Assembly: GCF_028368995.1 (NCBI RefSeq)
Contig: NZ_JAQNDL010000001.1
Location: forward strand, 2,144,001 to 2,208,000
Reading direction: 5' to 3'
DNA: 64,000 nt
Origin: Nannocystis bainbridge
GTDB lineage: Bacteria; Myxococcota_A; Polyangia; Nannocystales; Nannocystaceae
Part shown: positions 10,285-20,286 of the stretch, one piece after another
Position numbering within the stretch: position 1 is the stretch's first letter
How the letters are laid out: each line of letters begins with the position of its first letter
Program-made: the position numbers and the translations under genes
Notes under the pieces: generated by a model
What the model was told of the DNA's origin: nothing
The model's input: only the letters and a program-made list of their open reading frames with translations
Database searches by the model: none

Positions 10285-10467
10285 CCGCACACCCCGCCAA
10301 CGCCGAGCGCCGGCCTTTCGCGCCGGCGCCGGTCACATGTCCCTCGGGACAGCTTGCTACAGCTTGAACTCGATCGTCCGCACACCCCGCAAACGCCGAG
10401 CGCCGGCCTTTCGGGCCGGCGCCGGTCAGCTGTCCCACGGGACAGCTTACTGCAGCTTGAACTCGAT
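10285..10467. repeat. Imperfect 93-bp-period tandem duplication covering the ompA-like 3' end and its downstream hairpin
   Basis: Copies 10285-10374 and 10378-10467 both read ccgcacaccccgc.aacgccgagcgccggcctttcg.gccggcgccggtca..tgtccc.cgggacagctt.ct.cagcttgaactcgat. Confidence 0.85.
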
Positions 10468-11901
10468 GCGGCGGTTCTGCGACTTGCCCTTGGCCGTCTT
10501 GTTGTCGGCGATCGGCTCGTCGGGGCCGGCGCCGCGGGTGGTGATCCGGCCGGCGTCGAGGCCCTTGTCGACCATGTACTGCTTGACCGCGTCAGCGCGC
10601 CGCTTCGAAAGGTCGACGTTGTGGTCGCGGTCGCCGGTGCTGTCGGTGTGGCCGCTGACCTCGACCTTGACGTCGGGGAAGTCCTTCAGGACCTTGACCG
10701 CGTTGTCGAGGGTCGGCCGCGACGTCTTCTTGATCGTGTCCTTGTCGACGTCGAAGAAGATGCCCTTGATCACCCCGGTGAACTTGGTGACCTGCTTCGG
10801 GATCTCGTCGGCGCAGCCGTCGGAGTCCTGGTAGTTGTTCTTCGTCTCCGGGACGTCCGGGCACTTGTCCTCGGCGTCGGGGATGCCGTCCTTGTCGCGG
10901 TCGGGCGGCGGGCAGCCGTCGGGCGCCACGCCCGGGACCTGCGGGCACTGGTCCTTGCTGTCGACGAAGCCGTCGCCGTCGCTGTCCTTCTCCGGGCAGC
11001 CGTCGGGCGCCACGCCCGGCTCCTGCGGGCACGCGTCCTGGCTGTCGAGGAAGCCGTCGCCGTCGCTGTCCGGCTCGGGAGTGGCCAGCGGGCAGCCGTC
11101 GGGCGCCACGCCCGGGGTCGTCGGACACTTGTCGACCTTGTCCTTGTAGCCGTCGCCGTCGCTGTCCGGCTCGGGCGCCGGCGCCGGCTTCTTCTTGTTG
11201 AGGACGAGCGACAGGCCGAGCAGCACCTCGAGGTGGTTGGTGCGGCCGCCGTCGGTCCGGTACTGCGCGGTCGCGTTGTCGCGGACGTCGACGCGCAGCA
11301 GCAGGCGCTCGTTGACGTAGAACTTCACGCCGCCGCCGAAATGGAGCGTCGGGTCGATGTCCTTACCCAGTCCGCTGGTGCCCATCAGGCCGTACCCGAT
11401 GAGGGCGAACGGAGCCACCCGATACGGCAACTGCAAGATACCGTAACCGCGGAACATCCCGATCACCGCGCTCTGATTCGAGGTCGCGGTCTTGGTCGGC
11501 GCCACTCCGCCCTCGATCTCGAGGCCGAGGAACGGCAGCGGGTAGTAACCGAACCGCAGGCCGATGTCGGGCGCGACCGTCTTGTACGGCTGCCAGGTCA
11601 CGCTGGGGTCGCTGGGGTTGTAGAGCTCGTGCTCCTTCGACGGCAGCAGGATGCCGCCGTAGATGCCGAGCTCGAGCTGATGGCGGGTCGGGCGGTGGCG
11701 CTTGATCCACGGCGTGCCGTCGCGGTCGGCCGCGCGCTCCTTCTTCTTCGCCTGCTTCGACGCCTTGGCGTCGGTCGACGCGCCGGCCGGCGAGACGGTC
11801 ACCGAACCGCCCGCTGCCGCGCCGGCGGGCTCGGCCGCGCGCGCGGTCGAGGAGATGGAGAGGGCCACGGCTGCCACGACAGAGGACGAGAATTTGGACA
11901 T
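10447..11901 (-). CDS. OmpA-family outer membrane protein: beta-barrel, 4 thrombospondin type-3 repeats, OmpA peptidoglycan-binding domain
   Basis: Signal peptide from MSKFSSSVVAAVALS; DSDGDG..D..D.CP repeats; SGHTD..NVDLSKRRA..NRRIEF. Confidence 0.92.
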   Translation of the reverse strand: MSKFSSSVVAAVALSISSTARAAEPAGAAAGGSVTVSPAGASTDAKASKQAKKKERAADRDGTPWIKRHRPTRHQLELGIYGGILLPSKEHELYNPSDPSVTWQPYKTVAPDIGLRFGYYPLPFLGLEIEGGVAPTKTATSNQSAVIGMFRGYGILQLPYRVAPFALIGYGLMGTSGLGKDIDPTLHFGGGVKFYVNERLLLRVDVRDNATAQYRTDGGRTNHLEVLLGLSLVLNKKKPAPAPEPDSDGDGYKDKVDKCPTTPGVAPDGCPLATPEPDSDGDGFLDSQDACPQEPGVAPDGCPEKDSDGDGFVDSKDQCPQVPGVAPDGCPPPDRDKDGIPDAEDKCPDVPETKNNYQDSDGCADEIPKQVTKFTGVIKGIFFDVDKDTIKKTSRPTLDNAVKVLKDFPDVKVEVSGHTDSTGDRDHNVDLSKRRADAVKQYMVDKGLDAGRITTRGAGPDEPIADNKTAKGKSQNRRIEFKLQ

Positions 11902-12284
11902 GGTCGAACCCACGCTGAGACGACGACCGTCACGCGAGCGACGGCGACCGGTTTGTACATAAGATCGCGGGCGCTGCCTAGACGAATTGCTCGCGATGCG
12001 ACGACGGCGATCCCACGGATCCGCCACCAACCTCCCCAAACGCGACCTGTACGTTACGCCAGGTTGGCCGCTTTGGGGCTCGTAAACGGGCGTTTTGGCG
12101 GGAATTATTGCGAGCACCTGGGCGCCCGATCCGCGCCCGCCCGCGCCCGCCCGCCCGCCATCTGTATTTTGGGACATGTCGCCAGGGACCCGGGGAGGTC
12201 GTCGTCGCCCCCGGGTTTGCCTGTGCGCGAGCGACGTCGTCGCCACGCTTGACGCCTCGGTACGGCCGCGCTCACCATCCCCGC

Positions 12285-14630
12285 ATGTTTCGAATTGATG
12301 TGCGAACCAGCTTGGTAGGCGGCCTCGGCCTGCTCGCGCTCGAGGGCTGCGGCAACGTGTGCGGCGACGACGGCCTCGTGTGGAATCAGGCCGACAACCC
12401 CGCGTGTCAGCAGGTCACCGCGAGCGTGGGCGACACCGAGACGACCGAGTCGACGACGAACGATCCGACCGACACCGCGCCGACGACGACGACGACCGAC
12501 ACGCCGACGTCGACCATGGGCTCGGGCGAGATGTGGTGCAAGGACGCCGACGGCGACGGCTTCGGCGACCCGACGATGTGTCAGCCGGACATGTTCCCCG
12601 GCTCGGTGCCGAACGCCGACGACTGCGCCGACGACAACGCCGACGCGTTCCCCGGCTCGGCGGAGCTCGACTCGATGACCGCGTGCATGGAGGACGCCGA
12701 CGGCGATGGTTGGGGTGACAGCGATCCGCCCGAGGGCGTCGAGCCTGGCACCGACTGCGCCGACGACAACGCCAACGCGTACCCGGGCGCGGCCGAGATC
12801 GAGTCGATGACGGCCTGTATGGAGGACGCCGACGAGGACGGCTGGGGCGACGACATGCCGCCCGAGGGCGTCACGCCCGGCACCGACTGCAACGACGACA
12901 ACAGCACGATCTTCCCCGGCGCGGCCAAGGACCTGCCGCCCGACCAGTGCACGCAGGACTCCGACGGCGACGGCTCGGGCGACAGCATGCCCGACGACCC
13001 CGACGTCCCGCCGGGCAACGACTGCGCCGACGACGACCCGTTCACCTTCCCCGGCGCCGCGCCCAACGACAGCGCCGAGGCGTGCATGACCGACGCCGAC
13101 GGCGACGACTGGGGCGACGACATGCCGACGGTGCCCGAGGCGGTGCCCGGCACCGACTGCGCCGACGACAACCCGCACGCCTTCCCCGGCTCGGCCGAGA
13201 ACGACTCCGCCAACGCCTGCATGGAGGACGAGGACGGCGACGGCTGGGGCGACGACATGCCGCCCGAGGGCGTCACGCCCGGCACCGACTGCAATGACAC
13301 CGACGCGGCCACCGGCCCCGGCGTGGCCGAGAACGAGGTCGACCCGAACGTGTGCCAGACCGACGGCGACGGCGACGGCTGGGCCGATCCGGACCCGGAC
13401 GACGACGACGCCGTGCCCGGCACCGACTGCGACGACAACGATCCGTTCACCTTCCCCGGCGCCGCGCCCAACGACGACCCGACGGCGTGCATGACCGACG
13501 CCGACGAGGACGACTGGGGCGACATGATGCCGGGCTCCGGCGTCACGCCCGGCACCGACTGCACCGACCGCGACCCGCTCGTGCACGAGAACTGCGCCCG
13601 CTGCGAGCCGAACCAGGTCAAGTGCGTCGACAAGGACCTCCACACCTGCAACGGCGAGGGCTCCGCCGAGAGCGTCGTCACCTGCGACAACGGCTGCGAC
13701 GACGCCGGCCTCAAGTGCTGGGACCCGCTCTCGGTCGAGGCTGGCGACAGCATCTGCGTCGACCTCGGCATGCCGGCCCAGCTGAGCGCCGTGGCCATGG
13801 GCGGCGACGGCGACTACGACTACAGCTGGTCGCCGGCCGCCACCCTGAACGATCCGGCGATCGCCAACCCGGCGGCGACTCCGCTCGGTCCGACCACCTA
13901 CACCATCGACGTCAACGACGGCGAGGGCAACACCGCGTCGGACAGCGTCACCGTCTACCTCAAGAACCAGACGCTGCAGCTCGACCCCGACATCTGCGAC
14001 ACCTACGACTTCCCGGGCGCCGGCGAGGACGCCGATCCCGCGACCAACTGGTCGTGGAACGACAACACGCAGACGCTGTGCCAGACGGTCAACGGCAAGA
14101 GCGCGGCGCTGTTCTGCGGCTGGGACCTCGACAACGCCACCATCACCGGCACCTTCCAGGTCACCGACGACGTCAACGACGACGACTGGATCGGCTTCAT
14201 GTGGGGCCTCCAGAACACCGACCACTACTACCTGTTCTCGTGGAAGCGCATCGGTCAGAACTTCGCCAACTGCGGCGGTCAGCTGCCCGCGGGCATGCAG
14301 GTCAAGGTCATCGACGTCGCCGACCCGATGGTCGCCCCGCAGACCTGCGCCGACCGGCTCCAGCCGGCCGACACCGTCAACTCGAAGCTGCTCGTGCCCG
14401 TCGGCGAGTTCACCACCACCGGCTGGGCCGAGGCCACCGAGTACACCTTCGAGCTGACCCACAAGGCCGGCGGCGAGATGACCATCATCGTCCGCCTCAA
14501 GGCCAACAACAACGTCGTCGCCATGAAGACCTTCATGGACACGACCTACGCCAGCGGCAAGTTCGGCATGTACACCAAGTCGCAGGTCAACGCCTGCTTC
14601 TCCAACTTCGTCGCCAGCTGCGTGCCCTGA
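12285..14630 (+). CDS. Thrombospondin-like lipoprotein: 8 Asp-rich Ca-binding repeats, Cys-rich module, PKD/Ig-like domain, TSP C-terminal-like domain
   Basis: LEGC lipobox; repeats C.DADGDGWGD..PGTDC.DD....FPG.A; C-terminal QTVN..GTF..DDDWIGF..WK..Q..DTTYASGKFG..SQ...FS. Confidence 0.8.
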   Translation: MFRIDVRTSLVGGLGLLALEGCGNVCGDDGLVWNQADNPACQQVTASVGDTETTESTTNDPTDTAPTTTTTDTPTSTMGSGEMWCKDADGDGFGDPTMCQPDMFPGSVPNADDCADDNADAFPGSAELDSMTACMEDADGDGWGDSDPPEGVEPGTDCADDNANAYPGAAEIESMTACMEDADEDGWGDDMPPEGVTPGTDCNDDNSTIFPGAAKDLPPDQCTQDSDGDGSGDSMPDDPDVPPGNDCADDDPFTFPGAAPNDSAEACMTDADGDDWGDDMPTVPEAVPGTDCADDNPHAFPGSAENDSANACMEDEDGDGWGDDMPPEGVTPGTDCNDTDAATGPGVAENEVDPNVCQTDGDGDGWADPDPDDDDAVPGTDCDDNDPFTFPGAAPNDDPTACMTDADEDDWGDMMPGSGVTPGTDCTDRDPLVHENCARCEPNQVKCVDKDLHTCNGEGSAESVVTCDNGCDDAGLKCWDPLSVEAGDSICVDLGMPAQLSAVAMGGDGDYDYSWSPAATLNDPAIANPAATPLGPTTYTIDVNDGEGNTASDSVTVYLKNQTLQLDPDICDTYDFPGAGEDADPATNWSWNDNTQTLCQTVNGKSAALFCGWDLDNATITGTFQVTDDVNDDDWIGFMWGLQNTDHYYLFSWKRIGQNFANCGGQLPAGMQVKVIDVADPMVAPQTCADRLQPADTVNSKLLVPVGEFTTTGWAEATEYTFELTHKAGGEMTIIVRLKANNNVVAMKTFMDTTYASGKFGMYTKSQVNACFSNFVASCVP

Positions 14631-14631
14631 G

Positions 14632-14655
14632 AGACATGTCCTTCGGGACATGACC
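14632..14655. repeat. Two-unit motif pair AGACATGTCC-TTCG-GGACATGACC (can form a C(UUCG)G hairpin)
   Basis: Begins 1 bp after the stop at 14630, between convergent genes. Confidence 0.8.
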
Positions 14656-14699
14656 CGAGAGGCCGCCGCGTCCCCGACGCGGCGGCCTCGCTGCGTGGG

Positions 14700-15866
14700 T
14701 CAGCCCACCGTCAGCGGCAGCGCCCGGCCGTCGGCTTCGACGCGCAAGGCCCAGCGGCGCCCCTCGTCGGCGAGCATCACGATCGCGTGCTGCCCGCGAT
14801 CGAACACCTCGGCCATCGGGTACTCGCCCGCCCCCGTCACGCGGAACACCTCCGGCGCGTGCTCGGCGTCGGTGAGCGTACCGAGCCGCCCGACCAGCGC
14901 CTCCTCCTCGGTCCACAGGCCGAGCACGCGCTCGCCCAGCAGGTGCAGCGCGCCGCCGAGGAAGCGCTCCTCGTCGCCGCGCAGGTGCTCGGTGGCGAAC
15001 GCCTCGGGCCCGGGGACCGTCAGCAGGGTCCACGCCGAACCGCGGTCGTCGCACCAGAACACCCGGCCGACGCCGTCGATGTCGTTGACCTGCAGCGCCA
15101 GGCTCTCGAGCGGCAGCTGCTCGAGCGGCGTCCATCGGCCCGCGCGCACGAACGCCGTCACGAGCAGCGGCGGATCTGCGCCCATCGACACCCCGATCGC
15201 CAAAAAGCCGTCGTCCGAGCCGCCGCGCAGGTGCGCCCAGCACGGGTAATAGTGCTCCTGACCGAACTCGAGCCGACCCAGATCGATGCGCGGCCCCAGC
15301 CCGGTCGCCTCCACCCGTCGCAGCAGCAGCTCGCGCCCGTGGCCCTCCCGGCGCGAGCTGAACAGCCACTCGCCGTGGACCCCCTGGAACTCCTCGCCCG
15401 GCAACCAGTCGGCCAGCGGCGCGCGCGTCACGGCGCCGTCGGGCCGGCCGATCGCCACCAGCGGGCGGTGGTCGGCCTCGACGCCGAGGAACGAGCCATC
15501 GGCCAGCACGCATTCGACCGCCGTGCGCCCGAGCACCGCCGCGATCGGCGGCTGGCCCTCGAGCGGGAGCAACAGCGTCTCCCCGTGAGTCCTACGCTGG
15601 CGCAGCCACCAGCCGGAGGCGCTCGGGATCAGCGCGAACTCGTCGGCCGCGAACTCGTCGGGGTCGCCGAGGCGAAGCTCCCGCACGACCCGCCGCCGCA
15701 CCGGCGCTGTCGGCTCGTCGGCGAACACCAGCAGCGTCGGCGGGGCGAAGAAGAACAGCGCCACCTCGGCCGCGGACCGGCCGACGAGCGGCGGCCTGTC
15801 GGCCTCGATCAAGACCGCGAGCGGCACCGCCTCGCCGCCCGCGTGGAGCATCGGCATCTGGCTCAT
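14700..15866 (-). CDS. Hypothetical protein
   Basis: Long ORF with protein-like composition and host-like codon bias; start taken at MSQMPML. Confidence 0.6.
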   Translation of the reverse strand: MSQMPMLHAGGEAVPLAVLIEADRPPLVGRSAAEVALFFFAPPTLLVFADEPTAPVRRRVVRELRLGDPDEFAADEFALIPSASGWWLRQRRTHGETLLLPLEGQPPIAAVLGRTAVECVLADGSFLGVEADHRPLVAIGRPDGAVTRAPLADWLPGEEFQGVHGEWLFSSRREGHGRELLLRRVEATGLGPRIDLGRLEFGQEHYYPCWAHLRGGSDDGFLAIGVSMGADPPLLVTAFVRAGRWTPLEQLPLESLALQVNDIDGVGRVFWCDDRGSAWTLLTVPGPEAFATEHLRGDEERFLGGALHLLGERVLGLWTEEEALVGRLGTLTDAEHAPEVFRVTGAGEYPMAEVFDRGQHAIVMLADEGRRWALRVEADGRALPLTVG

Positions 15867-15922
15867 GCCGCCGGCATATCGCGCCGCCACCCGCCTGTCG
15901 AGCGTGCACCGCGGCCGACTTC

Positions 15923-15960
15923 GAACATGTCCTTCAGAACATGTCTCGGACACCATGTGA
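15923..15960. repeat. 14-bp-phased array, 3 units
   Basis: GAACATGTCC at 15923, GAACATGTCT at 15937, CACCATGTGA at 15951. Confidence 0.75.
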
Positions 15961-16071
15961 CAGTCGAACCGCAACGACGAGAGGCGCGCAGGCCAGAGCC
16001 TGCGCGCCTCTCAGGATGCGCCTCTCGACGTGAACCTCCCTTCGCTCGGACGCGGGACGGAAGTGGTGCGA

Positions 16072-16483
<412 letters not shown>

Positions 16484-16527: not shown

Positions 16528-16968
16528 TCAGGCCGCCTTGACGGTGATCTGCTTCGGCTGCGCCTCGGGGTGCTTGGGCATGGTCACGACCAGGAGCCCG
16601 TTCTTGAGCTCGGCGCTGACCTTGTCCACGTCGATGCGGGCCGGCAGCGCGAAGCTGCGGGAGAAGCGGAGGTCGCCGCGCTCGCGCCGGTGCACCGCGT
16701 AGCCCTTGGGGGCGGTCGCCTTGCGCTCGCCGGTGACGGTCAGGCTCTCCTGCGTGGCCGACAGTTGCAGCTCGGCGTCGGTGAGCCCGGGCACCTCGGC
16801 GACCAGGACGAACGCGTCCTTGGTGTCGCGCAGGCCGGCGCGCGGGAAGGCCAGCGGCTGGCCGCGGCCCTCGGTGTCGGCGTACTCGCGCAGCGCCTGG
16901 TCCATGCGCCGGCGGAGGCTGTCAAAGGTGCGCATTGGGTCGTTGAAGTCCATCCAGTAGCTCAGCAT
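16528..16968 (-). CDS. Hsp20/alpha-crystallin small heat-shock protein
   Basis: AEVPGL..RRERG..FSRSFALP..V.AELKNGLLVVTMPK..PKQI; ACAGGAG RBS upstream of MLSYW. Confidence 0.92.
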   Translation of the reverse strand: MLSYWMDFNDPMRTFDSLRRRMDQALREYADTEGRGQPLAFPRAGLRDTKDAFVLVAEVPGLTDAELQLSATQESLTVTGERKATAPKGYAVHRRERGDLRFSRSFALPARIDVDKVSAELKNGLLVVTMPKHPEAQPKQITVKAA

Positions 16969-17284
16969 GGTCGTGTCTCCTGTGTCGCTCGTCGTCGGTT
17001 TTGGTGGTGCGTTCGAGGCTCCGCCGCGACCATCGGCCGGGCGGGCGCGTGACGGCCCGCCGATCGGTGGTAGCGTGGGTCTGCGCGCCGGAGCCCTCTG
17101 CGGGCTCCCCGGCGGCCTCGGCGGGTCGTCCCGCACCGGCGCTGACAAACTATTGCCGCGTCTCCGAGTGTCAAGGGCGTCGCGAATCGCCGCGTCGTGT
17201 CCGCCTCACGCGCGCCCGACGCCGGCTCGCCCGCGACCCACTGTCACTCGCGACCGGCTGAGCTCGGCGCCAGGGCCGGCGCTG

Positions 17285-20023
17285 TCAGAACTCGAGCCGC
17301 ACGCCGAGCGACGGCAAGATCGGCAGGCCGGTCTGCAGCTGGCGCTGCTGCAGGTTGTACGAGTAGACCCACGCCTCGCCGTTCTGGCGGTTGTAGACGT
17401 TGATGATGTCGAGATAGAAGTTCGCCGTCACGCGCTTGAACGTGAAGCGCTTGTCGACGCGCAGGTCGAGCTGGTGGAACGCCGGCAGCCGCCCGTCGCG
17501 GCCGAACCACGGCTCGTAGCCGTCCTGCACGAACGCGCTGTCGAAGTAGGAGACCGACGGGTTGCCGCTGACGAGGCGGAAGCGGCCGCCGATCTGCCAG
17601 CCGCGCGGCAGCTTGTAGACGGCGAGGATGGTGAGGATGTGCGGCTGGTCGAAGCTGAACGGCCGGTAGTCGGCGCCGGGCCGGGCCTGGATCAGGCTCT
17701 TCATCAAGGTGTAGCTGACCCACCCGAACAGCCGCTTGGTCAGCGCCTTGCGGACCAGCAGCTCCATGCCGAAGATCTGGCCGGTGCCCTGGTTGGCGAA
17801 GTTCTCGAGCCGGATGTCGCCCGAGACCGGGTCGCGCATCAGCACGCTCGAGGAGGTCGAGCGGTCGAACACGTACTTGTAGAATCCGGTGACCTCGGCC
17901 TCGATGCCGACGCTGTCGAACACCTGGGCCACGCCGAGGCTGGTGTGGACCGCCCGCTCGATGCCCGAGCGCGGGTTGCCCCACACCGGCGCGAGGCTGA
18001 TGAGGTCGGGGATCTGGCTGTAGAGGCCGACGCCGCCCTTGACCGCCGTGTTCTCGCCGACCTGCCAGTTGAAGCGCACGCGCGGGTCGACCGTGGCCTT
18101 CTTGATCTGCAGCGCGTAGTAGGTCACGCGCGCGCCGGGGTAGATCGTGAACTTCTCGCCGAGGCCGATCGTCGCCGTGGTGTAGATCGCCGGCGTGGCG
18201 TAGTTCTGGCCGATGTCGGCGACGTTGTAGACGCCGGTGTCGCCGGTCCCGGCCCCCGCCGGCACGCCCGGCGCGCGGGCCCCGATCTCGTAGCGACCGG
18301 CCTGCAGCTCGGTGCCGACGCGGATCGCCGCTCGCTTGCTCAGCTGCCGCGACGCCTCGGCGCGCCAGCTGAACTCGTACTTGGGGAAGTTGAAGGTGAA
18401 GAGCCCGCCGAACGCGCCCGACAGCGACTGGTAGTTGATCGACGGCGTGATCAGGAAGTCCCACGGCCCGTCCTGCTTGCGGTAGACGAGGTCGAGCCGG
18501 TGGAACAGGATCGCCGTGCGCGCCTGGTTCTCCGAGCCCGTCATCGTCTCGTTCGGGCCCTGCGCGATCACCCGCAGGCGGTCGTCCGAGCCGAACCACC
18601 GCACCGACAGCTCGCCGCCGCCGACCGGGTAGTCGAACAGGAACTGATAATCATAGTAGCGCGGCGCCTGCGACAGCCCGAGGCCGATGTCTTTCGGCAG
18701 CGCCGCCTTGAGGATCGCGTCGACGTAGCTGCGGCGGAAGCTGGTGACGAAGCTGCCCTTCTTGATCGGGCCCTCGAGCATGATCCCGGCGTCGAACACG
18801 TCGGCGTCGACGTAGCCGTGGTAGCCGTCGCGTCGGCCCTTGCGCGGGTTGACGTTGATGATGCCGCCGATCGCGTCGCCGAACCGGCTGTCGAAGTTGC
18901 CGGGGATGAAGTCGATCTGCGCGAGGATGTCGGAGTTGAAGGTCGACGACAGGGCCCCGAAGTGGAACAGCTGCGGGATCTCGTGGTAGCCGAGGTACGT
19001 CTTCGAGTCGCCGGGCGCGGCGCCGCGGATGATCAGCAGGCCGAGGCCGAACGGCGCCCGCGCGACGCCGGGGAAGTTCTGCAGCGACTTGAGCGCGTCG
19101 CCCTGCGTGCCCGGCAGGTTGAAGATCTCCTCCGGCGTGATGGTGCGACGCGCGACCTCTTCACGGGCGTCGCGGCGCTGCTTCACCACCGTGCGGAACG
19201 GGTTCGACACCAGCCGCCGGGCGAAGTACTTGACCTCGAGCAGGTCGCCCTTGGCCAGCTCCTCGACCACCTCGTAGCGGTCGAAGCCCTGCGCCAGGGC
19301 GATGATGCGGACCTTGCCGTCGGGCACGCCGCGCAGCTCGAACGAGCCGTCGGGGGCGGTCTCGGCGCGCATGGTCCAGGCCGGTTCGGGCTCGTCGCCG
19401 TAGATCTTTTTGGTGACCTGTCCCACCGGCCAGTCCGGCGGCGCGGGCACCACGAGCACGCTCGCGCCCGACACCGGGACGCGCTGGCCGGCCTCGAGCA
19501 GCACGCCGCGCAGCCGCACCGGACCTGTCCCTTGGGACTGCTGGGCGGGTTCGCCCGCGTCGGTCTCGGGCTCGCCGGCGTCGACCTCGGGCTCGCGGTC
19601 CGCGGGCTCCGGCGGCAGCGGCGGCGGGGCGGCGATGTCGATGCCGACCTTGAGCACCACCTCGATCGGCCGGCCCTTGTAGAGCCCGGGCGTGTAGCGC
19701 AGCTGGGCCACGGCGGACTTGGCGAGCGCGTCGAGCTCGGGGTGCACGCTCTGCACGACCTCGAGCTCTTTCGGCACCCCGTCGACGCCGACCACCAGCT
19801 TGACGACGACCTGTCCCTGCGGCGGCGCGGGCAGGCGGCGCAGATCTTCGGGGTACTCGAGCTCGACGCTGTTCTGCAGCGCCGGCTGGACCAGGTCGGC
19901 CGGGTCCTGCGCACGCGCGGAACCGGCGTGCAGCGCCGCGGCCAGGGTCAGCACCGCGCCCAGGCCGTGCAGGCCGGCGGTCCCGATCCGGAGGCTGGCG
20001 AGGCGGCGAGGTCGCGGGCGCAA
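17285..20023 (-). CDS. TonB-dependent receptor with N-terminal TonB C-terminal-like and carboxypeptidase-regulatory-like domains
   Basis: YPE..QGQVVVKLVVGVDG (TonB_C); plug LPGTQGDALKSLQNFPGV..IIRG; C-terminal LGVRLEF. Start uncertain: TTG at 20023 chosen for the GGAG upstream and the signal peptide ending ARA. Confidence 0.85.
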   Translation of the reverse strand: MRPRPRRLASLRIGTAGLHGLGAVLTLAAALHAGSARAQDPADLVQPALQNSVELEYPEDLRRLPAPPQGQVVVKLVVGVDGVPKELEVVQSVHPELDALAKSAVAQLRYTPGLYKGRPIEVVLKVGIDIAAPPPLPPEPADREPEVDAGEPETDAGEPAQQSQGTGPVRLRGVLLEAGQRVPVSGASVLVVPAPPDWPVGQVTKKIYGDEPEPAWTMRAETAPDGSFELRGVPDGKVRIIALAQGFDRYEVVEELAKGDLLEVKYFARRLVSNPFRTVVKQRRDAREEVARRTITPEEIFNLPGTQGDALKSLQNFPGVARAPFGLGLLIIRGAAPGDSKTYLGYHEIPQLFHFGALSSTFNSDILAQIDFIPGNFDSRFGDAIGGIINVNPRKGRRDGYHGYVDADVFDAGIMLEGPIKKGSFVTSFRRSYVDAILKAALPKDIGLGLSQAPRYYDYQFLFDYPVGGGELSVRWFGSDDRLRVIAQGPNETMTGSENQARTAILFHRLDLVYRKQDGPWDFLITPSINYQSLSGAFGGLFTFNFPKYEFSWRAEASRQLSKRAAIRVGTELQAGRYEIGARAPGVPAGAGTGDTGVYNVADIGQNYATPAIYTTATIGLGEKFTIYPGARVTYYALQIKKATVDPRVRFNWQVGENTAVKGGVGLYSQIPDLISLAPVWGNPRSGIERAVHTSLGVAQVFDSVGIEAEVTGFYKYVFDRSTSSSVLMRDPVSGDIRLENFANQGTGQIFGMELLVRKALTKRLFGWVSYTLMKSLIQARPGADYRPFSFDQPHILTILAVYKLPRGWQIGGRFRLVSGNPSVSYFDSAFVQDGYEPWFGRDGRLPAFHQLDLRVDKRFTFKRVTANFYLDIINVYNRQNGEAWVYSYNLQQRQLQTGLPILPSLGVRLEF

Positions 20024-20286
20024 GCGGCAGGAGCATGCTCCAAGCCCGGCGCCCCTGGCTAGTGCCGCCGAAGCCGGCGCGCGCGGTCTGGCCGGCGTGC
20101 GCACGGCCGGGAAGCCCGGGCCCCACCTCCTGCGTAATGTCTCTTCCCGGGGCTTGCCTCGGCGTCCCACCGGACAATCGTTCCCCTGCGGGGTCGAAAG
20201 CCGCGCCGACGCGGCAAGGCCGCTGGCCCCCGGTGGTACACTCGTAACGGCTCCCTGCGGCCCGTTGGCCGCGCAGCTCCGCTCCC

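Follow-up and report, generated by a model that had tools for sequence, protein, structure and literature searches.

The C-terminal domain of thrombospondins is usually treated as an invention of the animal extracellular matrix, and the question raised here is what such a domain signifies at the end of a bacterial protein. The gene concerned lies on the forward strand of Nannocystis bainbridge contig NZ_JAQNDL010000001.1, at positions 12285 to 14630 of a stretch of 64,000 nt (contig positions 2,144,001 to 2,208,000; this whole stretch is referred to as the window and all positions are counted from its first letter). An initial annotation, made from the letters alone, had read the product as a lipoprotein of a multicellular bacterium with calcium-binding repeats followed by a thrombospondin C-terminal domain; the host, a Nannocystis, is indeed a myxobacterium. 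The protein belongs to the TSP_C domain family and stands outside the thrombospondin protein family, since the type-3 repeats that define the latter were tested for and were not found. The domain had thus been spotted correctly, in a bacterial architecture without prior characterisation, and belongs to a domain family that is large and already annotated automatically. The protein is interpreted below as an envelope lipoprotein built of an anchor, a stalk and a head, for which calcium-dependent adhesion or recognition at the cell surface is the most likely role (probability ca. 0.6). Its features are as follows.

12285..14630, + strand: whole gene, encoding a probable lipoprotein with anchor, stalk and head (open reading frame of 781 amino acids [aa], stop codon included)
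14040..14621, + strand: head, TSP_C (thrombospondin C-terminal, L-type-lectin-like) domain (Pfam, phmmer against the PDB, Foldseek)
14178..14186, + strand: DDD motif D632-D634, opposite the double-calcium site D1001-D1003 of thrombospondin-1 (alignment to 1ux6_A)
12537..13622, + strand: stalk of eight Asp/Cys repeats of 44-49 aa, residues 85-446 (motif and tandem-repeat search)
13623..13724, + strand: Cys-rich knot with 6 Cys in 34 aa, residues 447-480 (alignment A1, model)
13740..13958, + strand: Ig/PKD-like beta-sandwich, residues 486-558 (Pfam below family threshold, model)
12285..12350, + strand: signal peptide MFRIDVRTSLVGGLGLLALEGC, ending in a lipobox-like LEGC whose Cys22 is the putative site of lipidation (sequence)
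12348..12410, + strand: conserved membrane-proximal module CGNVCGDDGLVWNQADNPACQ (alignment A1)
12411..12536, + strand: Thr/Ser/Asp-rich low-complexity linker (sequence; predicted local distance difference test score [pLDDT] of 31-46 at residues 41-80)

The identity of the head was established by three kinds of comparison. Pfam placed TSP_C (PF05735) at residues 586-779 with an E-value (E) of 3e-19 and a score of 70 bits, above the cut-off of 25.6, with profile positions 3-196 of 198 covered, a match that chance could not plausibly produce; no family was returned when the 781-aa protein was scanned against NCBIfam. A phmmer search of all PDB chains returned five sequences, four of which are thrombospondin or COMP: thrombospondin-1 (TSP-1; 1ux6_A, E 1.6e-13), TSP-2 (1yo8_A and 2rhp_A, E 4.2e-11) and COMP (3fby_A, E 7.5e-11), all four human chains being collinear with residues 582-779 of the query (584-779 for 1ux6_A). 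A full-length AlphaFold2 model was built from the 123-row alignment A2 (mean pLDDT 74.4) and replaced a single-sequence model of residues 469-781 that was unusable (mean pLDDT 36.4). Residues 441-781 are modelled at pLDDT >89, and the top four Foldseek matches in the PDB were again 2rhp_A (3.5e-16), 1yo8_A (1.1e-15), 3fby_A (2.4e-15) and 1ux6 (1.5e-14), aligned over 224-236 columns with a root-mean-square deviation of 2.7-4.4 A and 21-24% identity. The next matches were the arabinanase AbnA (3.9e-7), CBM66 (1.8e-6) and ERGIC-53 and legume lectins (ca. 5e-6, to 1e-5), so that generic lectins trail the top thrombospondin/COMP match by about nine orders of magnitude; since they match worse, the TSP_C assignment stands. 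Profile, PDB sequence matches and model fold thus uphold what had been claimed for the C-terminus, and the C-terminal strings that had been quoted in its support all occur in the translation of 12285-14630.

The collinearity proposed earlier includes the DDD motif, with D632-D634 aligned by HMMER to the DDD of TSP-1, which is described as a double-calcium site (PMC4501361, PMC6526912), making this motif a putative calcium-binding one in the Nannocystis head. It is invariant in all 38 members of the family alignment, and across the 123 TSP_C proteins collected from these searches it is kept in 115/119, 104/118 and 118/118 of the filled positions. In animals, DDD and the beta7/beta8 loop are reported to mediate trans-interactions between thrombospondin molecules that are sensitive to ethylenediaminetetraacetic acid (PMC4501361).

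The eight Asp/Cys repeats noted upstream of the head are present at residues 85-446. Their consensus reads C..D.DGDGWGD...PGTDC.DDN...FPGA.E, with a DxDxDG loop and two Cys in each, and the motif D.D.D[GD].[GA]D starts at residues 87, 137, 181, 225, 270, 315, 360 and 405; the strict form Dx[DN]xDG fits six of the eight, the remaining two ending in D and not in G. At the nucleotide level, Tandem Repeats Finder detected a unit of 132 nt in 7.1 copies at 12620-13568. What did not hold is the reading of this arrangement as the type-3-repeat plus L-lectin layout, because the repeats are not TSP_3 and because two further domains intervene before the head. Indeed, Pfam TSP_3 (PF02412) was unlisted at E<=1 for the whole protein and at E<=10 for the repeat region, with the proviso that HMMER filters remove most matches above ca. 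0.1 and that a very weak TSP_3 match could stay hidden. The sole Pfam match in the repeat region was Cu-binding_MopE (PF11617; E 0.55, profile positions 1-16 of 30). When compared by BLASTP, the repeats aligned with the array of a bona fide PF11617 protein (L016, itself matched by PF11617 at E 7.5e-73 in 7 stretches) with an E-value of 1e-19 and 33% identity under composition adjustment, against 0.012 for the true TSP_3 repeats of a neighbouring gene product (see below), where the alignment is confined to the DGDG loop. Many MopE-type arrays of Myxococcota and Bacteroidota also matched target residues ca. 80-440 in a scan of species genomes. The repeats have in common with MopE-type proteins the unit DxDGDG(F/Y/W)GD ... 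P.G.V ... DC.DDN....PGA.E, while they lack the second half of that motif, CxDGxDxDCDG; with type-3 repeats they have in common the Dx[DN]xDG calcium loop, which is described from many unrelated contexts (PMC3123361). As judged from sequence comparison, the repeats are best described as a divergent relative of the MopE-type "putative metal-binding motif" arrays, and not as a scored member of PF11617. Being MopE-type and not type-3, they do not make the protein a bacterial thrombospondin.

The two domains between stalk and head are a Cys-rich knot and an Ig/PKD-like region. In the knot, C447, C455, C467, C471 and C478 are invariant in alignment A1, and the model shows short beta-hairpins with pLDDT >90. 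The Ig/PKD-like region is modelled as all-beta, also with pLDDT >90; it is matched below threshold by the Pfam family K319L-like_PKD (E 0.0013-0.0022, 18-19 bits against a cut-off of 27) and weakly by 5lxk_A in the PDB phmmer search (E 0.35).

These results bear on the possibility that the protein is a bacterial counterpart of thrombospondin or COMP, in which the repeats would be homologous to type-3 repeats, would form a calcium wire on the head and would inform the origin or transfer of the animal domain. That the head is a true TSP_C domain with its DDD, that each repeat combines a DxDxDG-type loop with two Cys as type-3 repeats do, and that the Foldseek alignments reach slightly beyond the head alone would all agree with such a counterpart. 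Against it, TSP_3 is absent from the listed matches of the repeats whereas it reaches 1.8e-11 in the neighbour, the BLASTP values favour the PF11617 array over true TSP_3 by 1e-19 to 0.012, and ca. 140 residues (Cys knot and Ig-like domain) separate repeats and head. Moreover, human TSP-1, with 53 bits, is outscored in comparisons with the head by at least 150 cluster representatives, all of which reach 70 bits or more (see below). No EGF family was matched by Pfam in the target at E<=1, nor was Pfam COMP at E<=1, a search in which no coiled-coil predictor was run, so that neither EGF nor coiled-coil families are represented among the Pfam matches. Such a counterpart is regarded as decidedly unlikely. 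The C-terminal domains of animal thrombospondins and COMP (1UX6, 1YO8, 2RHP, 3FBY) and the head described here agree in domain family, fold and position of DDD; they differ in that the bacterial head lacks preceding type-3 repeats and EGF domains, ends a putatively lipid-anchored bacterial stalk and is accompanied by no oligomerisation domain in the Pfam matches.

At the other end of the protein, the start codon ATG at 12285 was chosen over a TTG at 12108, which would lengthen the same open reading frame, on account of the typical signal peptide MFRIDVRTSLVGGLGLLALEGC and of relatives that begin at the same position. By inspection, the LEGC is preceded by a basic n-region and a hydrophobic core, and a hydrophobic stretch followed by [GAS]-C was seen in 40 of the 46 family sequences inspected, the other 6 being truncated or having a mis-called start. 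The lipoprotein claim of the initial annotation is borne out to the extent that a lipobox-like signal is present and kept across the family. In alignment A1, conservation reaches 90% or more at C26, D28, D29, G30, W33 and Q35 of the module that follows.

Thirty-seven relatives were recognised among 299 candidates from a word index, and all thirty-seven carry a precomputed PF05735; the closest, from Nannocystis sp. SCPEA4, has 90% identity in the head and 87% over the full length, and a homologue from N. pusilla is named "TSP C-terminal domain-containing protein" in UniRef. A further word-index search with the head alone and with longer proteins returned only the same family plus one further protein (P0191), and reached no distant TSP_C proteins. 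In a genome collection, at least 152 of 627 pattern-matched stretches encode a relative, and 80 of them were kept and gave 78 loci, in five of which the head is covered (L001, L002, L003, L004 and L078, from Nannocystis, Nannocystaceae, Polyangia and one metagenome-assembled genome labelled proteobacterium). The lipobox-like signal, the C..C.DDG...C module, the Ser/Thr-rich linker, the stalk, the Cys knot, the Ig/PKD-like domain and the head are found family-wide. While the N-terminal module and the head are constant, the number of stalk repeats varies from 0 to 8 (median 3, 54 members), the target having the maximum. In four outer members of the lipoprotein clade with the same N-terminal module and TSP_C head (P0080, P0098, P0053 and P0165), the DxDxDG repeats are replaced by a hyper-Cys stalk, with for example 169 Cys in 1369 aa, that resembles the stalk of TraA.

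The head may be exchanged as well. Two paralogues, one of N. punicea (L005, 5986-7419, + strand) and one in a second locus (L008, 4692-6887, + strand), keep the anchor, the C..C.DDG module and a MopE-type stalk but end in another head: that of the former has a weak DUF6923/DUF4394-like Pfam match, that of the latter matches no Pfam family, and TSP_C is absent from both. The family is thus one of Nannocystaceae and Polyangia with an anchor-stalk-head build, in which the stalk is variable and the head swappable, and it is this modularity, in repeat number as in heads, that chiefly supports reading the build as an anchor and stalk with exchangeable heads. It is also what would be expected of a spacer that presents interchangeable heads. 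The same variation bears on a further explanation, according to which the Asp/Cys repeats would sequester or buffer copper or calcium at the envelope, TSP_C being a mere scaffold. The resemblance of the repeats to "putative metal-binding motif" arrays and the very high content of Asp and Cys speak for metal handling. It is, on the other hand, the repeats that fall to 0-2 in many members while the head is invariably present and strongly conserved; the PF11617 match stays under the threshold and is limited to the first half of the motif, and the name of that family is itself qualified as "putative". We consider this explanation very unlikely.

Beyond this family, the head was compared by phmmer with 1.84 billion representatives of clusters at 50% identity, of which 573 matched at E<=1e-3, 245 at E<=1e-10 and 13 at E<=1e-30. 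All of the 150 representatives listed score at least 70 bits, and Pfam scans of 138 of them (12 giant proteins were left out) found TSP_C above the cut-off in every one (41/41, 85/85 and 12/12). These representatives are called bacterial on the basis of domain architecture and not of organism names. Partner domains include arrays of He_PIG, Big_9 and Cadherin_5 as well as Calx-beta, dockerin, cohesin, PASTA and CARDB; RHS repeats occur in 4 of 41 mid-size and 11 of 12 giant TSP_C proteins, and PEP-CTERM in 3 of 85. Several giants of 2900-4700 aa (P0052, P0066, P0068, P0079 and others) combine TSP_C with He_PIG/Big_9 arrays and C-terminal RHS repeats. Such architectures suggest that surface proteins resembling polymorphic toxins make recurrent use of TSP_C as a module. 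The domain was also found by tblastn in 13 plasmid records (11 of Vibrio and 2 of Alteromonas), one being the Vibrio vulnificus IncC-type plasmid NZ_AP026554.1, in which a protein annotated as the mating adhesin TraN (L079, 362-4684, + strand) has TSP_C at residues 716-892 (47.7 bits), ahead of its F_T4SS_TraN domain; a tblastn search of phage records with the head gave no match. The RHS-repeat giants, the dockerin protein and TraN have the same head domain above the Pfam cut-off as the Nannocystis protein, from which they differ in that their TSP_C is internal or N-terminal among Ig-like arrays.

The presence of TSP_C in bacteria is already known at the annotation level. It is defined as a module type in the legend of a table of Ruminiclostridium cellulolyticum cellulosomal proteins (PMC5256962), and a literature search found no functional study or characterisation of a bacterial TSP_C protein; among the papers examined, those that combine "thrombospondin C-terminal" with "bacterial" do so mostly by citing the title of Kvansakul 2004 or in connection with type-3 repeats.

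The relationship of these domains was analysed with 198 domains from 191 proteins, cut by a hidden Markov model from alignment A2. In a FastTree phylogeny, all 54 rows with the C.DDG signature fell into one clade of 74 rows (Shimodaira-Hasegawa-like support of 94), the rest of which is mostly fragments. A careful IQ-TREE analysis (LG+C20+F+G4) was run with 70 rows sampled from the 198, namely 11 of the core clade (the query and 10 random rows), 29 of the outer clade, 26 random other bacterial rows and 4 eukaryote-like rows. The 40 lipoprotein-type domains were split from the other 30 rows with 100/100 support, so that the remaining bacterial TSP_C rows fall opposite the lipoprotein family across this branch. 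The only metazoan-type sequence in the tree (P0048) has a long branch and does not fall within the lipoprotein clade; it is placed among other bacterial domains by FastTree and by a quick IQ-TREE run. This protein has 749 aa and three tandem TSP_C domains (Pfam 673 bits), with ca. 200 bits to human TSP-2; type-3 repeats were not detected in it.

Placing P0048 beside the lipoprotein clade was not rejected by approximately unbiased (AU) tests, either with the quick tree (p 0.768, the constrained tree being 17.5 log-likelihood units better) or with the careful one (p 0.415, 3.45 log-likelihood units lower). The AU tests not having rejected adjacency, no large distance between the family and the animal-type domain is claimed. 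The comparison of bacterial and metazoan TSP_C that had been suggested at the outset is thus firm in that the family clade excludes P0048 and loose in that the attachment of P0048, a single proxy, is not fixed. As the family clade excludes the metazoan-type domain, nothing suggests that TSP_C was exchanged recently between Nannocystis and animals. In favour of Nannocystis having recently acquired an animal TSP_C horizontally, one could argue that the domain was first defined in animals and that human thrombospondins align with the entire head. Identity to the human structures is just 21-24%, though, with at least 150 representatives closer; all 138 scanned representatives have TSP_C, many beside bacterial-type domains, and the 100/100 branch sets the 40 lipoprotein-type domains apart from P0048. 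Such an acquisition is extremely unlikely. The relevance for origin or transfer that had been attached to the gene is weakened accordingly, TSP_C being found in hundreds of clusters, many with bacterial-type architectures.

How adhesion or recognition would be achieved can be outlined from the build of the protein. Lipidation at Cys22 would be followed by sorting to the outer membrane and, most likely, exposure at the cell surface. Calcium in the DxDxDG loops, together with the two Cys of each repeat, may stiffen the stalk, which would hold the head tens of nanometres off the membrane, and ligand binding would take place at the DDD tip of the head, loaded with calcium. A polysaccharide or a protein could serve as ligand, the latter possibly being another copy of the head on an adjacent cell, by analogy with the trans-interactions of thrombospondins; the outcome would be calcium-dependent adhesion or recognition. 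A role at the surface is supported by the other TSP_C proteins (with RHS, He_PIG/Big_9, dockerin, cohesin, PEP-CTERM or TraN), all of which are surface or secreted binding proteins. By analogy, the closest functional counterparts appear to be CglD-type surface lipoproteins and the TraA receptor. CglD of Myxococcus xanthus is reported as a calcium-dependent surface lipoprotein of the gliding machinery with COMP-like DxDxDG repeats (bioRxiv 10.1101/2023.10.19.562135), and TraA as lipid-anchored, with its head on a Cys-rich stalk (PMC12045341). Like the Nannocystis protein as it is read here, CglD is a myxobacterial lipoprotein with many DxDxDG repeats and a Cys-rich stalk, reported to be surface-exposed and dependent on calcium; when compared by description, it is like COMP in the calcium-repeat part and has a VWA domain, in contrast to TSP_C and MopE-type repeats in the target.

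Several points weigh against adhesion or recognition at the surface. The comparisons above demonstrate what the head is, to which family the protein belongs, that its build is modular and to what the repeats are related; lipidation, location in the outer membrane and at the surface, calcium binding, stiffening of the stalk and DDD-dependent ligand binding are all steps that we infer. The Glu at position -2 of the lipobox is atypical, the PF11617 score of the repeats is 11 bits against a cut-off of 27, that is, below the gathering threshold, and the pLDDT of the stalk is patchy (36-91), which makes its rigidity a conjecture. The animal domain bound nothing on an array of 406 glycans (PMC4501361), so that the word "lectin" may mislead. 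Finally, the lipoprotein might face the periplasm and serve envelope architecture, possibly in contact with the TSP_3-OmpA part of the product of the divergent neighbour, which is described together with the intergenic region as follows.

10447..11901, - strand: divergent neighbour of TraB architecture, with signal peptide, outer-membrane beta-barrel, four TSP_3 repeats and OmpA domain (Pfam)
11902..12284, no strand: intergenic region of 383 bp between the divergent genes (coordinates)

Many outer-membrane lipoproteins face the periplasm, as is generally known, and an oxidising periplasm would be compatible with the 35 cysteines; in addition, the TSP_3 repeats of TraB-type proteins are reported to sit between the barrel and the OmpA domain (PMC12045341), and type-3 repeats contact the L-lectin domain in animal thrombospondins. 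L008, where the same neighbour is paired with a protein devoid of TSP_C, nevertheless speaks against a specific contact of this kind between TSP_3 and TSP_C. Elsewhere, TSP_C accompanies extracellular modules (RHS, dockerin, PEP-CTERM) and TraN, and a stalk of up to eight repeats with its linker would seem long for the periplasm. A periplasmic role has, in our estimate, a small chance of being correct, and surface adhesion or recognition is retained as the preferred reading.

The neighbour itself is matched by OmpA (E 4.3e-24), TSP_3 (E 1.8e-11) and, below threshold, OMP_b-brl (E 0.005). Its listed open reading frame of 599 codons (10447-12246, - strand) is probably over-extended: a likely start at ATG 11901 gives 484 aa with a clean signal peptide, MSKFSSSVVAAVALSISSTA, a length that agrees with that of the N. 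pusilla homologue (91-92% identity). TraB, which partners the lipid-anchored and stalked TraA, is described with the same architecture of barrel, TSP_3 repeats and OmpA (PMC6372800, PMC12045341). In L004 a TraB-type neighbour, likewise divergent, adjoins the member of the family, and in L008 it adjoins the paralogue with the swapped head; none was found within 4-6 kb in L002, L003 and L078, while L001 does not extend far enough to show it either way. The closest relatives differ between the two genes, being SCPEA4 (87-90%) for the target and N. pusilla and N. radixulma (89-92%) for the OmpA neighbour, of which the SCPEA4 copy is just 70-71% identical; paralogy or genome sampling may explain this. 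A complex prediction for residues 23-240 of the neighbour (the barrel, from alignment A4) with residues 23-135 of the target (N-terminal module, linker and first repeat, from alignment A1) scored 0.00 against a mark of 0.32, which is no evidence either way.

This arrangement suggests a two-protein receptor like TraAB, in which the target would act as TraA, the neighbour would act as TraB and tie it to the cell wall, and the head would serve homotypic recognition. Like TraA, the target would be a lipid-anchored receptor with a distal head on a Cys-rich stalk and a barrel-TSP_3-OmpA partner, the TraB likeness of the neighbour being one of architecture. The pair recurs in L004, where the head is only 32% identical, and in L008 with a different head, and three more members have the length of their longest contig (6156, 12835 and 250363 bp) and their source in common with an OmpA-family match, which indirectly suggests linkage; swappable heads and variable stalks recall the variable domain of TraA, and animal TSP_C domains are reported to bind each other in trans via DDD. 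On the other side of the comparison, the anchor of the target is an N-terminal lipobox-like signal in place of a C-terminal MYXO-CTERM tag, and its head is TSP_C, that of TraA being PA14-like: indeed, the Pfam scan of the target gave no PA14, and its C-terminus (...FVASCVP) has no MYXO-CTERM tag. Likewise, the two genes are divergent, whereas traAB orthologues are reported always to form an overlapping operon (PMC6372800), and the pair is missing within 4-6 kb in the three loci mentioned above. OmpA-TSP_3 genes are moreover so numerous (4336 matches at E<=1e-20) that the adjacency could be due to chance. A receptor of the TraAB kind is therefore considered unlikely, if not negligibly so. Its fuller form, in which a lipoprotein with swappable heads and a TraB-type neighbour would constitute a new TraAB-like recognition system of Nannocystaceae, with TSP_C binding itself in trans via the calcium-loaded DDD, is put forward tentatively, as a rather improbable proposal.

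The genes downstream show no evident link to the target. A convergent gene (14700-15971, - strand, 423 aa) matches no Pfam family, and its ESM Atlas model, which starts at residue 36, is beta-propeller-like (template modelling score 0.50-0.59). It is followed by two Hsp20-family genes (15863-16480 and 16528-17145, both - strand) and by a gene of 960 aa (17285-20167, - strand) with TonB_C and outer-membrane beta-barrel matches; the first Hsp20 reading frame overlaps the end of the 14700-15974 reading frame by ca. 110 nt, one start being probably mis-set. A scan of 11900-15000 gave no sigma-70-like promoter and no terminator-like site, and no tRNA genes were found in the 64-kb window.

Taken by itself, the target gene is one ordinary member of a large, automatically annotated domain family. 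The DDD calcium motif has been proposed to make its debut within the metazoan thrombospondin superfamily (PMC6526912), and the words "bacteria" and "prokaryot" are absent from that 2019 superfamily paper. The domain is nevertheless abundant, with DDD intact, in proteins of bacterial surface architecture, and it heads a defined family of myxobacterial lipoproteins, which opens the questions of what the DDD tip binds outside the animal context and whether the animal domain may be of bacterial descent. If the TraAB-like reading were true, the thrombospondin L-lectin domain and its DDD would have been bacterial adhesion devices before animals, and the proposal of a metazoan debut for DDD (PMC6526912) would need revision. 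For myxobacterial biology, the gene provides a candidate calcium-dependent adhesin or receptor, possibly with a TraB-like partner, and does so in a genus of which few surface proteins have been characterised.

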